64,000 bases of DNA from Pocillopora damicornis (lineage: Eukaryota). Positions 53,736-63,100 of the stretch are shown here, piece after piece. Location: positions 310,001 to 374,000 of the forward strand of contig NW_020846178.1 in NCBI RefSeq assembly GCF_003704095.1. Direction: 5' to 3'. Under the pieces are notes generated by a model. The model did no database searches and was not told the DNA's origin. It worked only from the letters and a program-made list of their open reading frames with translations. How positions within the stretch are numbered: position 1 is the first letter of the stretch; every line of letters begins with the position of its first letter. The position numbers and the translations under genes were made by a program.

Positions 53736-53845
53736 CAAAACACGGGGTGGGGGACTACTGCTGACCATTTGCGGTGTTTACCGTCATAATCAAGCAAAAC
53801 ACGGAGTGGGGGACTACTGCTGACCATTTGCAGTGTTTTCCGTCA
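53736..53845. repeat. Tandem duplication (59-bp period, about 51 bp near-identical) just upstream of the TPCN2 start
   Basis: caaaacacgg(g/a)gtgggggactactgctgaccatttgc(g/a)gtgttt(a/t)ccgtca occurs at 53736 and 53795. Confidence 0.9.
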
Positions 53846-55162
53846 ATCAGGGATGCTGGGTTAAGGAACTTTTAGATCGGGACCAGCAAAGCTTTTCACA
53901 GAATCAAGGATAAGACTGATAATAGATAATAAATAAGATAATAAATGTATGTTTTTATTTACATGGCATGTGTTAAGTTCGTGTACAATATTTGGAGCTG
54001 ATGCTGGTTGGTCAAGCAAGAGGTGATAACCATTTGAAATGCCAATTATTACTGAGACATTGGCCTTTCTACCTCAAAACACATGCCCTGAACGTAACAA
54101 CAAATCCGGATGGGATTTTGGGGGGTCACTTTGAATAAACAAATAAATTATAGAAAAACGAAGTGTAAATGTTTTTGGGAAGGAATGTTCCAGTTCCGTA
54201 GTTTGAGAACCTTTCGACCACTCGTCAATCCAAGTCTCGGATGTCTTCTTATTACTATCTATCGAAATTTTCCTTTAAAACTTGCAAAAAACGAACATTC
54301 ATCCGTCTTCTCCAAATGTTTAGGGGCTAATGTCTGGTAAAATCCTCAAGAAAGAACGAGGAACGGGCGTTGTTTTCCGTGATCAAAGTCCTCACGGCGT
54401 CAGCTAGACTAAATGGAGGTGTTAAGAGAAGATCGACTCCTTTGAAATGCCCGGCGGTCACGGAAAGATGTCACTGAGGGCCCACCTCAATGTATTCTAT
54501 TTGATCTGTAGTTCTTGGCCCATATCAGTGTCGCACCCCGGATTGAGGGTTCCACTTTCCAAAGGGGCTTAGAGGGAAATTCTTAAAAATCTCCTGCTTC
54601 TTGTTTGAACGTCTAGATTATTTTATATATTGGACTCTTTTGCCCTTTTAACCTCCTAATAATAACTATAACTGTATTCTAAACGCGTACTATATTACTC
54701 CACCAGAAAGAATTCCAAGCAAAAATTATTTACAGTCATTTCACAAGATATATATAATACACCACATCTTAGAAACCTACACGATTTTCAAGATTTTTGT
54801 ACATAAATTTCGTATGGATAGCTGATCTGTCAGTATGAGATGATTCAAAACACTTACCCTATTGATATAGGGGCTAAATTCCTTGAGCGAGGTTAGATAA
54901 ACTTATTGCAAAGTCATTGTCTTTTTCACATAGTGAACCCATATTCAACGTGCAGTTAAGTTATTTAGAAAAACCAATACATCAATTATTCTTTTAGATG
55001 ACTTCTTTCTCAACAGCCGGTGAATGTATTCCATCCTCGTCTCTCTTTTTCTCTATGTAGGTTTCCCACACCATCATATAAATACATCGTGCGAGAACTA
55101 CTAAGATCGGCCTTGATCTTTAGGACAGGAACTGTTTGGAAGCCAATTATAATCTCCTCGGC

Positions 55163-58100
55163 TCATCTATGTGTTTCAAGCTTGTGCAAGCTGTAAGGCT
55201 GAGATGTGCAGAGGTTGTTATTTTGTCGGAGATGTTCCAGTCTTGCTAGGTTTTGCTGTTTGTAAACGGCGTTTCTTTTCTTGAGACTGAGTCGGTAAAA
55301 GGTGAAAGCAAAACGAAACAAAAGTTTGTCAAACTATACATTTAGAAAATTTCTCCAGTGGAGCTACATTTTATTACGATAGAGTGCGAACTCTTTCGTT
55401 TGGAAAAGTAGGTAAGGGGGACCTGCACTAGAAATATAACCTGTGTAGGAGAGGAACTGTGGGGGTTTCCGCGTATGAGAATTGTTAAAAATACCAGTCT
55501 TAACTATTCTAAACACGAAAACTGGCCTTTGAACCAATCGTCTAGACTGATACATCAAAACAATGGAGACACATATGGGTTTTAATAATGATAATCATTA
55601 AATAATCGTTTGATATATTTTGCTTTAGAATGTAGAGTGGAATATGGGAGTATCACTTATTTACTCAAGTTAAGCTTGGTCGGTTCTTACCATTTTAGGC
55701 ATGTGCCCGTCTGAGTTCCTTTACTTCTCATTTCAGGTCTTTCTCTTCCCTGTTTCTCCAGAGAAACTTTACGTAATCTATTTAGCTCTGTCAGCAACGC
55801 CCTAAAAATTTAAGAAATAAAATTTACTTTCATTTTTTCCCCCAGCCTGTCAGCAAAACTTTTTTCAACTTTAAGGGTTTTACATTTGGTGTAACCAAGA
55901 TACGAGAGAGATGGTTCTTTGGTGAAGATAAAACTCACCATAAGGTAAATTAAGATTTATTAGGAAGCACACTCACACAACTATTTATTTCTACACTCTC
56001 GGTTACAAATGCTCTAGTTATCTAAAAACAAGCACCAAATTGATTTTAGTCCTAATGATGTAAAAAATAATGCAAAGTTTTGAATAACAATGGAAGAAAT
56101 GAAGACAAACGAACAATTTGAACCTAATCAGACATATTTTTTGGGTGACCAGAAATAACCGTGATCTAAACAGTGGTCTGAATTCAATTGTACGAAAACT
56201 TCAATTTGCACCTATACTTTAGGTGGCAACTCTTATTGTGCATTCTATCTTCATCAAGGACCTTAATTCACGAATGTAAAATTTTCTTTTTGTCTTGTTT
56301 TTACAGAGGAGCTTAGCTTGGTTGTTAAAATTTTAGTCTTTTCAACAGGTATATTAATAGATATCAGGCAAATAAAAGACGAAGAGGATAATTATCTTTC
56401 TTTCATTCAATCTCCTTGCCTTTCATAATTACAATATCCTTAATGAACTTGTGCGAGCCAAAGCAAAGTCATAAGCATACGGTTTGTGAGTTCTTTATTA
56501 ACTAATCCTTGTCTTTGTTCTCCCTCCTTAATTAATGATTTAAATTTCTGATAACCACTTTGTGTTTTCTTTGTAGAAGAAAAACATTGTTTCAGACTTA
56601 ATTATGATCTACTCTGACTGAGATAATTTGTATGATTATTGAAGGCTTCTTCTATGTTACCTTACGGTCGATTCAAGGGAGTCTACTTTTTGTCGAAGTA
56701 TGCTGTTTTCTGAGTTGCACGTCTCCACCCTGAAAAAGAATGGCACGTACCAAACTAAATCAAAATGAAAGTTCGGAGAGCATCGCTTTACGATAATATC
56801 CTTAGAGCAATTCTGTGACACTTGAACGTCTTAAATAAACTTTTAGCCGGCGCAAGGGTGAAAACAGACAAAAGCAGGCCAAGAAAAAGTTACTTACAAA
56901 GTAAATAAAGCGAATCCTTAGCGTGCAAGACTGCCTACTTATATTTGTTTCAGTAATAATCCCAGTTTGCATTAAATTAATCAACAATGGTCACATCGCA
57001 TGGCCATACTTAAACATACTATTTTCCCCCAAAAGTGTCACCACTGACTGCTTTTTTAAGGGCTAAGTGGCTAAGGATCACAGTAACTTTATTGGTAGTT
57101 TTTATTTGTTACTATGCAACTTACCTTTTCTCCAAACCTTCGACGTACTCTTTTTTCTTTCGCCTGCTTTCTTGTGCAGAGAGCTTGGGAAAAAAAAAAA
57201 CATACCATCTCTAATTTTAGTTTATTTTATTTTACAACCGCTCCTCAACTTATTATCGTGTTTAAGCTGTGGATGTGCTAGAACTCGCATACGTGTTCGA
57301 CACGTACCGACCGGAGTAGAATATTCAGGACAACTGACAAAAAACTGATACGAATTGGGAAGCAAGAATAAATCCTTACCTTGTTTTTAATCTTACGCCG
57401 AATCCTTTTGAGGGCCCTCTCTTCTGCCTAGAAATAAAATATTGCTGCCTTTAGTAGTCGTTTCGTTCTAGGTACTAACCAACAAAAGATAATTTCTAAC
57501 GGTTACTAAGACCGCGTCATCGACTAGCAAGAGGACGCCGGTTATATGTATCATTTCTGTCATGCAAAATGCAGGATTTCAAGGTTCACTTCCCACTGCT
57601 ACCTTAGGGCTATTATCCGGTCTCCAGACGAGAGTTCAGTAGCCATATTAATACTATAAATATACCTTTGTCAATGGTATCCTGCTTGGTACCGGAAGTC
57701 CTTCAGAAACGAAAGTTTCTTTTTCCTCATCTGTGAGTTTTACTTTATCATCGCAGCCTTTCTCAGTGAAAATGACGTCCTTCTCAACCTAGGAAAAAAA
57801 AAATCAATATTCGGTAACAACAATCAATATTTCATTTTATGATTCACGTCACTCCAAAGTAAATAGGAATGAAGACAGCAGCAGCTGAGTAATTTTAATC
57901 ACATTTTGTCGTCCACACCTGATCGCATTCGTCATCATTGAGTGAATAACCTTGTTCTCCACTGACATCAATGTCGCTGCTGTCTGAGTGCTCTTGTTCT
58001 TCAAAGATATCTTCTGGGTAAGATGCGACTTCTATCTCTTTCTGAGAAGAAAGTAAAAGCGTTAGCTAGTATAGCCACATGATGATAAATTTAATATATT

Positions 58101-60110
58101 TGGGTGTACACTTAAAATAGGCTTCTTTCTGTTCTGGTTCGAAAGGCAATGCACTGCTTGAGGTCGCGAAGGACCTTAGACCAGAAAGGATTCTGCATCT
58201 TACACCCTCGTCAGTTCGAACGTGGTTAGCAACCTCACAGCTGACAAAGCTAACGTTTATGCTATACTGTTTCTGACTATGTTTCTTGCGACAAAAGCAA
58301 AAAAAAAAATTTGCATAGAAAACGTTCACACCTTTTCTAGCAGAGAAGAGATCTTGAAAAGAAGTTTTCTGTCTTGCGAACGGTCCTTTGGAGAACTTTT
58401 CAGGCTGAAAGCATGACAGCCTTTCGATGAATTTGCATTCTAAAGGAACGGAAAAAAGGAATATCAAATGTGACGAAGCCTTTTGTTATGAAAAAAGCAA
58501 TTTCATGGACCAAAGAACAACGACAATGAATAGGAAAGAACTGAACTCGATGGAAAGAAATCCTCGTAAAGCAAAAACAATCCAGACTGGCCCTTAATAA
58601 AACTCGTTCTCTCTAAAAACCCACTTATCATGACGCGTTAACATACGCTGAATGCCACACCTTTCTAGCTAATATCCTTATTCACAGTACATCGTAAAAG
58701 GATCTGAGCACATCGTTGAACTAAATTGATTTCGAAGGATATCATGAAACAACGTTTGATTATGAGACCAAATAATCATGAGACAAACCCTGATCACATA
58801 GCAATAGATTTTTTTATGTTTTTTCGTACGTATACTCATACTCGAACCACAGAATCTCCTTCACAGCTCTCTGAAAAGCTCTTTTTCTTTGGAATTCGGT
58901 TTTATCTGACCTCATCGCTTTCAAAACCTGGGATAAATGTATTTAAAATTTGCCCCGTATTTCTTCTTAAAGATCTCAGAGTAAATGAAAGCGGATTTTT
59001 GCTAAAAAATATTGCAAATATCAGAGCAAGAACAATATGGATTGATAGGAAATGTTGAATTAGGTGTGATCGGTGTAAAAATTTCATCCCGGACTCTATC
59101 CATCTATTTACAGTAAGGAGAACGGTGCTATGCTGAGTATGAAAAAGAACGGTCGAACCTCCTCTTTTGTCAACAACAGCCACTTTTGCATTGTTTTAGC
59201 GTGCAGTCCTTATTTTAACCTCTCCACATTAGCAACTAAGCCTTCACGTTTTCAAGAGGACAACCCTTTGCAGCTTTATTTCACCTAAGAGAAGAGAAAT
59301 CATCCTCCTGGAAAGGGCAAACGTTTCACACACCTTATTCACAGTACCTTAACTCGTTTTGTTTTGTTAGCAATTTTTTGCTAATAATAGATTTTTGGTT
59401 TCTTCCTTACTTACATATGATTTTGGATTGTATTTCTCAATCTTTTCCCTATATATAACTGCCAACCATCTACAACGGCCTTTTCCTGCCGAACTCAATG
59501 CGGCCGTAATGAAGATACTTGAATGCACTTGCAGATGATCGAACTTTGCGTGTTAAGATTCATTATCATATAACAAATAGAAAAACGAAAAGTAGAATTT
59601 CGCAATCTAAGTATCGAAGCAAAAAAAAAAAAAAAACCAAACGCGGCCAGAAATATTTTGTTACAACCTTTTTACGGATAAAAAACGCAGAGGTGATTCT
59701 TTCTTCCGAAGGGAATTTCATGCAAACCCATTTCCGATTGCAGCATCAAGACAAAAAAATTCTAAACAAAACCAAACCAAACTGAATCTTTTAAAGATAT
59801 ACCTCTCGACGTAGACAAAGCAGCGTGTTATAAATTACGGCTGCGAGTTTGTCACCAAAACAAAGTATTTAAATCGAGAATCAAAAATTTAAAAATGAGC
59901 ACCACAGCTGAAAATTAAGAACAGACTTGGAAGGATGTCTATGAATTAATTAAGTAGTCCTTTTTTTTCGTATCAGTACCATCAAATAAATATCCCAATA
60001 TAATTTGCATAAACTTTCAGCTTTGTGCACTTGTAAAATTATCCTATACAACTCACCTTGAGAGAATGAACACCCGTAAATTCGTCGTAAGCTTGGTTAA
60101 ACGCCTCCAT
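55163..60110 (-). CDS. CREB3/OASIS-family (CREB3L/CrebA-like) bZIP transcription factor, about 236 aa, with no predicted transmembrane anchor
   Basis: Exons 60110-60057 (ATG with in-frame TAA upstream), 58041-57919, 57788-57666, 57427-57380, 57183-57125, 56729-56661, 55801-55691, 55286-55163 (TGA). Translation has an acidic N-terminus, the family adjacent-to-bZIP motif [40 protein letters not shown], basic region LSAQESRRKKKEYVEGLEKR, a leucine zipper and GTQTGTCL. The last exon choice is less certain than the bZIP exons. Confidence 0.88.
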
Positions 60111-63100
60111 CGCCTCGTCTTCGTCACGTAGCAGTTAGAAACTACAAATTGAAGTGCATACATAATTTTGTTTAAATTTCACGTACATCTTCTAGCGACG
60201 TAAAAAGTGACACATGAAAGAACACGATAAAGATGAATGACGCAAATAGAAATTTAAGGACAACTTGAAAAGTAAACTATGAATTCAAACAACGTAAAAT
60301 TGACTTCAGATTATCTTTTACAGAAAACAGTTATTTTGTAATGGATACTGATATTATTACTGAAAGCAACGTCGTTTCAATACCATTAAAATAGTATGAA
60401 AACTGACCATCTATCGTCGGGTCGCAATGCAGAGCAAAGCGTAATTATTTCGCGGTTAAAATCATAGCTTTTCATGGTGGTCCATAAAAATGCTATATTA
60501 ATGTTCAAGAATTGAAAGATACTTAATCATGCTGATTTTAAGCGTGATGCGAGTACAATTACTTTTACCCTTAATGAGTTTTTTCGTCTATGACGGATAC
60601 ATCTCAAATAGAAGTTGTTATGAAACTGGGACTTCCTTCATCACAACTGTTTTGGTAATTCTCATTTAAGAATATGGTGTAACATTTTGAACACGTAGCG
60701 GGCAGAACTTCTTCACTCGCATTATAAACAACATTATCGACCTTGAGTTGTCCCCTGGAAATATGCATATGGAATATGAAGCGAGTTTTTTTTTTAGGCA
60801 ATTAGAGTGCGAATGATGTACTCATCTTGAATCAGTAGAGGAAAGGTAATAAATCTTCCCTTTATAGGGCAGTTTCTCCTGCATCTCCTCCCATATTCAT
60901 TCCACATCAAAAATTTCAGCATAAGTGTTCCCTTTTAGCGGCGAACTCTTTCGTTTTGGCTTAAAAAGTGGACAAGTTGCTATGCAATCTTTATGTGAAA
61001 ATAACCTCGAGCGTTGGTACATTGCTTCAACTACGGTTGTGCAAAGCGAATCTCAATTTTTTCGAAATATATTTTGCCCGTAAGAAGTTAGTCTGCCTTA
61101 CCTCCGTTCAAAACAGAATCTGAATACTCTAGGTAATAAACCGAAAATTCTTCAGTCAACCAAGTTCTTCACACTTTACTGTAAACCTTTACTCTAAATC
61201 TGACTGTGTATAGGAGTGGCGTTTACAAGGTGTATGCAAATAAGGATAGAAGTCGAGTACATGTTAACCAAAAACACGTTGAATACCTTTTTACACGTGA
61301 ATAAGGTTTCTTATTTCCTCACTTCAGTCAAAGACAAATGCAAACGAATGTCCGGCGTATCGGTCATTAGAGGACGTTTCTATGGTGCAGTAAGATCTGC
61401 CTGGAAAAAACGTCATCTAGTCCACAGAAGAGGGCTAATTAGTGCAGTTAACTTTAGTCAAAATACGAACGACTTTTTTGCTGTTAAAACTTAACTGATT
61501 ATTTCTAGCAAGCTTGCTCACTTTTTTTCTAATACTTCGCTTTTATCAATAAATCTTAAGAAAAAAAGAAAGTTCTGTAGACAGCTTTTCATTAGGTACT
61601 TGTTAAGCACGAATTCAGTAACCGTCGTCATGTAGAAAGAATCTCCCGTGCACACGTTTGTGTTTTATTTAGCTACGTGCTTCGACGTGTTGCCACGAAC
61701 CAGAAGATATCGTGGTATTAATTAAAGATTAAAAAAAAAAAAAAGAGTTACTTTCGCCATAAGCTGAAGTTGTTTTCAAAATAAATCTGTAGCCATGACC
61801 CAAACAGTGCAAACGAGAAAAACTATAAATGAAGTAAATATATACAAAAAAACTACGTTTTAAAAATGTTGATGTCTCGTGTACAATTAGAAGAAACATA
61901 AACAATGCGCCTTTGCTTTATTTATACATATAGGTAGAAAAACCTTAAAATTCTGAACAAAGTTATATTTTAAATTAAATGAGAACGCGGTTCTTTTTCA
62001 AATTAAGAAAAGCAGTTGCGATAGTAGAAAGAATTACGTTGCAAAACTATGAGGTATTTGACGTTGCTTACTAAAATGGGCATTTGCTAATTTTTTTTTT
62101 TTTGTCTGCTGAAAAATCATACAACTCCCATGAAATCTCCCTCGATATCATCCAAACAGCGTTAGCAACTAGTAAACGTTCTGCTTATATCAGGATTTCT
62201 ATAATTAACATTTGGAGAATTTTCCTTTATTTTACTGACCAAAGCTAAATGGGTGATGTAATTACGAATGTCTCCCCTGTTTAATCCTGTAGAACTGCAG
62301 GGTTCCTACCCGATCCTGTTTAAACAGCTGTCTATAATAAAAGCCCAGTTTACAAAGCAAGAAACATATTCGCAAATTTACATCTCTTAGAAGGTAAAAC
62401 GTTCCGCCAGAAGACACAGGGTTCGTGTCATCTCCGGTCCACGACAAACAGCAAGCACATAATGCAGTAATTAATTTTCTCGACAGCACTCAAAGTTTCT
62501 ACATAAAGTTGCGAGCGCCGCTTTAGTCGCCGCTTTGAAGGGAGAACTATTCATTTTGAAAAGTGATTTTTGAACAGAATTTCCCGTGATCCTGTCCCTC
62601 GAATACCAATTGTTTTGTGAACTACCATACCCCAGAGAAAAAGAGAGCGAGACTATTTAAAGCTATCACGCGTGGACCTTAAGATGTAAATAATAGTTAA
62701 ATACATTTATTTTTCTGCTGATCTCAACATTTAAAAAGCTAATTTTTTTAAGCCAGAAATGAAAATCAATCTCCAATGAGACCGGACGGAAGTTATAGAG
62801 AAAATTCAGAGGTAAACTCTTCCGCAAATATCTCCAATTTCGACCACCTTGAATTTCGTCCATCGAATGAACGGAGCTTCCAAATGTTACAAAGCAACGC
62901 TTAGAAATAACTACATAACGATTTCTTTACTTTAGTGACAATTGGCAAGAAAACGGTGGATGGAAAAAAGCCGATTTTAATCTCATAAGTGAAACGCCAC
63001 TAAACCATACCTTATTAAGGCCAAGTTCATATTGGAATTGCTATAGAGTAATTAATTCCGATTCTTTTGCTATAAAATAAGCGACTAATTCAAGTAGGTC

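Follow-up and report, generated by a model that had tools for sequence, protein, structure and literature searches.

A CREB3L1/2-type bZIP paralog of anthozoans that lacks a membrane anchor

The closest described relatives of the gene reported here are the class A CREB3 factors CREB3L1 (OASIS) and CREB3L2 (BBF2H7), in which an ATB (adjacent-to-bZIP) segment, a basic region with the CREB3/OASIS signature NKxSAxxSR (PMC4736632) and a leucine zipper are followed by a TQT-G/S-T-C-L motif, a transmembrane helix and a luminal domain containing an RxxL site for S1P. Truncated human CREB3L1/2 proteins are described as nuclear and as switching on secretory genes (PMC3003312). Drosophila CrebA and other anchor-less class A proteins of arthropods are described as dispensing with intramembrane cleavage altogether (PMC6598459, PMC3003312), and CrebA induces secretory genes (PMC3003312, PMC6598459, PMC6616197). 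The CREB3 family is thus well described, as is the existence of members that have no anchor, CrebA among them; the anthozoan paralog is apparently undescribed. No account of it was found in searches of the CREB3, CrebA and cnidarian literature, although the Barbosa 2013 survey of CREB3 proteins, from sponges to humans, may mention it. The bZIP of its Acropora ortholog is listed as plain "OASIS" in a supplementary table of PMC4736632, in the main text of which the word "transmembrane" does not occur.

The gene lies on the minus strand of the window, the whole stretch of 64,000 nucleotides of Pocillopora damicornis DNA that was analyzed. A nine-exon model gives a 272-residue CREB3L1/2-type bZIP protein, identical at 272/272 residues to an automatically annotated RefSeq protein of the species. 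Exon 1 (60057..60144), the first coding exon with its ATG at 60110, encodes a short N-terminal helix (residues 2-12 in the structure model) that is conserved in hexacoral orthologs; its joint to the next exon (60057/58439) was seen in one of three RNA runs. Exon 2 (58332..58439) is present in RNA contigs and encodes an amphipathic helix (residues 39-52) conserved in the alignment and present in the structure model. This D-x-x-L-L-x-K-I-S-S-L-L-like helix is conserved as far as anemones, but several isoforms, whether annotated or assembled, leave the exon out (P0127, P0015, P0016), among them an annotated one of 236 aa; the helix is a possible splice-controlled cofactor site. The acidic, low-confidence linker of exon 3 (57919..58041) may be an activation region. 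Exon 4 (57666..57788) encodes the ATB segment, the family marker; exon 5 (57380..57427) the first half of the basic region; exon 6 (57125..57183) its second half and the start of the zipper; and exon 7 (56661..56729) the leucine zipper, with Val194 (56665-56663) at a position that is Asn in other CREB3 proteins.

Exon 8 (55691..55801) encodes the end of the zipper, a disordered linker and the motif S-K-G-T-Q-T (residues 221-226; 55708..55725), a predicted binding motif for the dynein light chain LC8, and closes with ACG GGC ACA TGC CTA AAA TG before the GTAAG of a phase-2 donor at 55691. The codon of the second cysteine in C229-L-K-C232 (55691..55701) is split by the intron, with TG in exon 8 and T at the acceptor, 55286. 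The coding part of the last exon (55163..55286) supplies a hydrophilic, variable 40-residue tail in place of the transmembrane and luminal exons, its stop codon ending at 55163, and is followed by a 3' UTR of about 1.2 kb (53934..55162) that runs in RNA contigs to a poly(A)-like loose end near 53934. In the monomer model (pTM 0.35), a long helix is accompanied by disordered parts: the zipper extends to about residue 214, the linker after it is of low confidence, and a further helix begins with the CxxC.

The original prediction was that this is an expressed CREB3-family bZIP whose transcript runs from donor 55691 into the hydrophilic tail and encodes no ER anchor. RNA contigs bear this out, and the gene is of the CREB3L1/2 type. 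The 55691-55286 joint is present in contigs from all three RNA runs (three studies) and absent from a fourth, DNA-like run; this evidence comes from contigs, which drop rare isoforms, rather than raw reads, and from 4 of 22 listed runs. Transcripts joining donor 55691 to an exon with a transmembrane helix and an RxxL site, the contrary case named in advance, were not found among the RNA contigs. Every AG acceptor between 55690 and 53000 was also examined, in all three frames, for a hydrophobic stretch of 17 residues beginning no later than residue 15. The best score within the transcript span was 1.58; all scores of at least 2.0 came from 53336-53091, which lies past the poly(A) end in the region of the neighbouring gene. 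Over the whole 272-residue protein, the peak 19-residue Kyte-Doolittle mean is 0.37, compared with 2.06-2.25 in all seven anchored cnidarian-type paralogs. The transmembrane helix that follows the zipper in CREB3 factors activated by regulated intramembrane proteolysis is thus absent by hydropathy and by acceptor scan, and there is no luminal domain with an RxxL S1P site, the 40-residue tail having no membrane span that would make it luminal.

Only bZIP families exceeded the Pfam cut-offs (bZIP_1, E=4e-15). Because an ATB segment that aligns with those of anchored paralogs (its counterparts being degenerate in the records from Exaiptasia and the octocoral) precedes a basic region reading NKLSAQESR, the protein is placed in the CREB3/OASIS family. 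Class A together with the anchor-less proteins was separated from six class B rows, chosen by motif, with support of 100/98. Searches of the ESM Atlas returned generic bZIP clusters only, under 0.9, and a PDB sequence search returned bZIP relatives only, with no match for the tail. Identity with the OASIS-L/CREBZF-like proteins, which have an NAIxAxxNR basic region (PMC4736632) and no ATB, was rejected, since both basic region and ATB differ. A bZIP of that type (NAIAAKENR) is encoded by a separate gene of the same genome as a single 340-aa open frame (L011, G000:C2912:20738-23989).

The same genome also retains a canonical anchored class A CREB3L1/2 gene (contig C138, about 226450-235450, minus strand; L004-L005), in which C-L-M at the exon end is followed by a transmembrane exon and the RxxL site RSRVLL, and a class B gene with a hydrophobic segment on contig C3536. 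Like CREB3L1 and CREB3L2, the C138 gene shares with the window gene the ATB, a near-identical basic region, the zipper, TQT-G/S-T-C-L and four introns; the window protein differs from CREB3L1/2 in its missing transmembrane helix, luminal domain and luminal RxxL, in V/I/L for the zipper Asn, in C-L-K-C for C-L-M-V and in a short, unrelated N-terminus. All four introns of the ATB-bZIP region agree in position and phase between the window and C138 genes, which shows that the two arose by duplication at the DNA level. The fifth donor, in phase 0 in the anchored gene, is in phase 2 in the window gene, where it lies exactly 2 nt later (CTA AAA TG|GT as opposed to TTA ATG|GT).

A 2-nt insertion had been proposed as the origin of this junction. 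The offset itself stands; the insertion as the means by which the anchor was removed is not supported, since the tail exon does not resemble a transmembrane exon. The local nucleotide score between the last exon and the paralog's transmembrane exon was 14, a value reached by 722 of 1000 shuffles in a comparison of low power at such an age. In the same test the basic-region exons were recovered as related (0/1000) and the penultimate exons were not (81/1000), so the test is weak at this divergence. In addition, no frame of the last exon is hydrophobic, and no frame of either exon resembles the other. The idea that the tail exon is a frame-shifted remnant of the transmembrane exon was rejected on these grounds; the exons for the helix and the luminal domain have instead been lost or replaced. 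As the event is old and common to Anthozoa, its nucleotide route is not readable from the P. damicornis genome.

Anchor-less orthologs are found in stony corals (Pocillopora, Oculina, Desmophyllum, Orbicella, Acropora and Porites), in anemones (Nematostella, Actinia and Exaiptasia, the record of the last stopping before the motif) and in the octocoral Dendronephthya. Among the 17 full-length proteins of this clade, which are related sequences and not independent draws, all contain Q-[TS]-G-[TI]-C-L-K-C, followed by a variable 5 to 69 residues, with only five in Nematostella. The split Cys codon also occurs in a genomic contig of another coral, the one contig matched in a pattern scan of genomic contigs. 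A survey of the family took the 150 best representatives after clustering at 50%; the basic motif is present in 148. A transmembrane segment is present in 68 of the 148 and absent from 80, an overcount of anchor-less proteins because truncated models and intron-retaining isoforms are included. A CxxC after the zipper occurs in only six of these 80, all in the anthozoan clade, and in none of the 74 others; similarly, among 312 proteins with the basic motif, the 56 with a CxxC after a TQT-like motif all belong to the clusters of the anchor-less clade. From these sequence comparisons, anchor loss is recurrent in the CREB3 family and the CxxC architecture is specific to the anthozoan clade.

Trees were built from the ATB and bZIP only, excluding the TQT/CxxC columns. 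In a 165-row tree, the 17 anchor-less proteins of the clade form one side of a branch with SH-aLRT 78, two short-tailed rows having been dropped. In a 45-row tree, the nine hexacoral-type rows have starred support of 96/89, and all eleven rows of the clade 55/71, a value for which the bootstrap was not settled; the two octocoral-type proteins sit in the clade on long branches at this weak support. A single origin that includes octocorals is supported by an independent shared character: a zipper "a" position with Asn in 139 of 141 representatives outside the clade has V/I/L in 18 of 18 clade proteins. Union with seven anchor-less arthropod-type rows (four named arthropods and three picked by position in the first tree) was rejected (AU p=0.013), in keeping with the suggestion that the anchor was lost independently of arthropod CrebA. 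Union with the cnidarian class A proteins was not rejected (AU p=0.256); the groups in both comparisons had been chosen after the first tree was seen. By these alignments, the duplicate is old and kept across Anthozoa. CrebA differs from it further in that its zipper Asn is kept (supplementary row in PMC4736632), and the anthozoan gene, unlike CrebA, is found in a genome that has also kept anchored genes of both classes, A and B. A Hydra OASIS-type bZIP (NCBI 449683034, also a supplementary row in PMC4736632) has Ile at the clade's zipper position and is a possible medusozoan ortholog by sequence; if truly so, the gene would be pan-cnidarian.

The linker sequence S-K-G-T-Q-T resembles VSRGTQTE, the phage-selected LC8 consensus, for which affinity rises strongly once the ligand is dimerized by a zipper (PMC3078936). 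As in LC8 clients, the TQT anchor lies in a disordered linker and its flanks are permissive, with a suboptimal +2 position. LC8/DYNLL clients such as EML3 (PMC3078936) likewise combine a dimerizing coiled coil with S-K/R-G-T-Q-T in an adjoining linker predicted to be disordered; the predicted site differs from theirs in having Gly rather than D/E/P at +2. That Gly is found in 17 of 17 clade proteins, Lys or Arg at -3 in only nine of 17; many TQT peptides fail to bind LC8, and P, D or E is preferred at +2 (PMC6607443). A 2:2 complex, with unscored zinc included, was modelled from a coral LC8 (one open frame, same genome) and an ortholog of 98% identity (P0003, residues 192-250). It scored 0.81 as opposed to 0.01 for the best control, passing a mark that 51 of 78 solved complexes attain but only two of 108 mismatched pairs do, a calibration that does not extend to peptides and disordered chains. 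Over three runs at least 90% of contacts agree, partner pLDDT is at least 72, and residues 217-231 lie in the LC8 groove; because LC8-TQT complexes have already been solved, and memory of them is possible, the pass may show likeness only. The xQT is found in 44 of 68 anchored representatives, but of the 56 other anchor-less representatives whose tails are long enough only 14 retain it, so the TQT may be a relic. With the model and the motif taken together, binding of LC8 by the window protein is modestly favoured.

Elsewhere in the genome, two genes for the LC8 dynein light chain stand in tandem, 2.6 kb apart, each matched in a single open frame (G000:C787:73554-76385; L015, L016). The pattern [KR]xTQT is an LC8-binding one, and R-S/G-T-Q-T stands just ahead of the transmembrane helix in all seven anchored cnidarian-type class A proteins, including that of the C138 gene. 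The TQT of anchored class A proteins is, by its sequence, a possible unreported LC8 site. Among the LC8/TQT papers listed by a literature search, none mentions CREB3L, although the predicted human LC8 partners in the supplements of PMC3078936 may bear on this.

Taken as a whole, the gene is an anthozoan-wide, spliced CREB3L1/2 duplicate whose product would probably bind CRE-like sites as a soluble homodimer, with no need of S1P or S2P, and is predicted to be clamped by an LC8 dimer at the TQT. In such a model, duplication would have been followed by replacement of the 3' exons, the new phase-2 junction creating C-L-K-C. That the protein is soluble and independent of cleavage is very likely: with no anchor to be cut free, no S1P/S2P release would be needed. 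Action on CRE-like targets is also likely, if less firmly so. In bZIP pairing, an Asn facing an aliphatic residue at position a is unfavourable. Since the aliphatic residue of the window protein would face the Asn of the canonical factor, homodimers would be expected by these rules, and the change of Asn to V/I/L, along with an added E-R g/e pair in most hexacoral clade proteins, may favour them over pairing with the cleaved canonical factor. The output would probably be to regulate genes of the secretory pathway, as CrebA does, with transcription in place of ER/Golgi proteolysis as the point of control.

The original prediction also had the paralog constitutively nuclear; the unvarying CxxC and the LC8-type motif argue instead for some other control. 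It may be that LC8 holds two linkers in parallel, which would make neighbours of their CxxC motifs and allow these to bind one zinc ion jointly or to form disulfides. Inter-subunit CxxC zinc sites are found in the Rad50 hook and the Get3 dimer, where each chain of a symmetric dimer likewise contributes one CxxC, a resemblance that is offered as an analogy only. By this analogy, a zinc or redox switch formed by the cysteines is conceivable but doubtful. A fuller version, in which an early-cnidarian duplicate exchanged its ER anchor for an LC8-aligned CxxC switch and became a secretory factor that answers oxidant or metal rather than ER-to-Golgi traffic, is unlikely; were it true, an LC8 site would also have gone unrecognised in every CREB3L1/2 protein, at the TQT that precedes the transmembrane helix.

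A simpler, somewhat unlikely alternative is that the protein is an unregulated, constitutive soluble activator like CrebA, in which the TQT and C-L-K-C are structural leftovers of the juxtamembrane region. CrebA does function without an anchor (PMC6598459, PMC3003312), and the TQT and the first Cys are already found in anchored relatives (xQT in the 44 of 68 noted above). However, the Lys and the second Cys arose within the clade and are present in 17 of 17 proteins, even in Nematostella, where just five residues follow them, and the split Cys codon is preserved in another coral genome. A further, improbable alternative would make the protein a repressor or competitor, lacking a real activation domain in its short N-terminus and either occupying CREB3 sites or sequestering the cleaved canonical factor. 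The region before the ATB is indeed about 110 aa, where the anchored paralogs of corals have about 250 aa, and only about 26 aa in the octocoral, and the HCF-binding motif D/E-H-x-Y is absent from all 18 clade proteins, as it is from all seven anchored cnidarian-type proteins. Against this, the N-terminal region is acidic (D+E 0.24) with conserved helices, the ATB, reported as necessary for activity (PMC6598459), is intact in stony corals, and the zipper substitution would disfavour heterodimers under the pairing rules given above.

An assembly artefact or decaying copy, in which a homopolymer error or recent frameshift masks a normal anchored gene, was worth considering, as the junction adjoins a run of four A in exon 8 (55696-55693) and the donor is 2 nt away from its canonical position. 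Contigs from all four runs compared have no indel at the run, which answers the concern raised about it in the original prediction. RNA and DNA-like contigs agree with the assembly, the RefSeq protein is identical, orthologs occur across Anthozoa, and no transmembrane exon in any frame precedes the next gene, so that this explanation retains virtually no weight.

This is a second, independent anchor loss among class A CREB3 factors, and the gene has been kept across Anthozoa with invariant residues of its own. Anthozoans depend on the secretion of mucus, skeletal matrix and venom, and in Nematostella or a coral the contribution of regulated intramembrane proteolysis to a CREB3 factor could be tested directly. 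If LC8 binding holds, LC8 would also be a candidate partner for human CREB3L1/2.

Downstream of the gene, a neighbour on the minus strand starts about 200 bases beyond the poly(A) end and extends from about 53718 to below 43000. Its exons look like those of a two-pore-channel-type ion channel; Pfam searches with four single exons returned nothing significant. Between the 3' end of the bZIP gene and the first exon of this neighbour, at 53740-53850, there is a direct repeat of about 45 bases in two copies.
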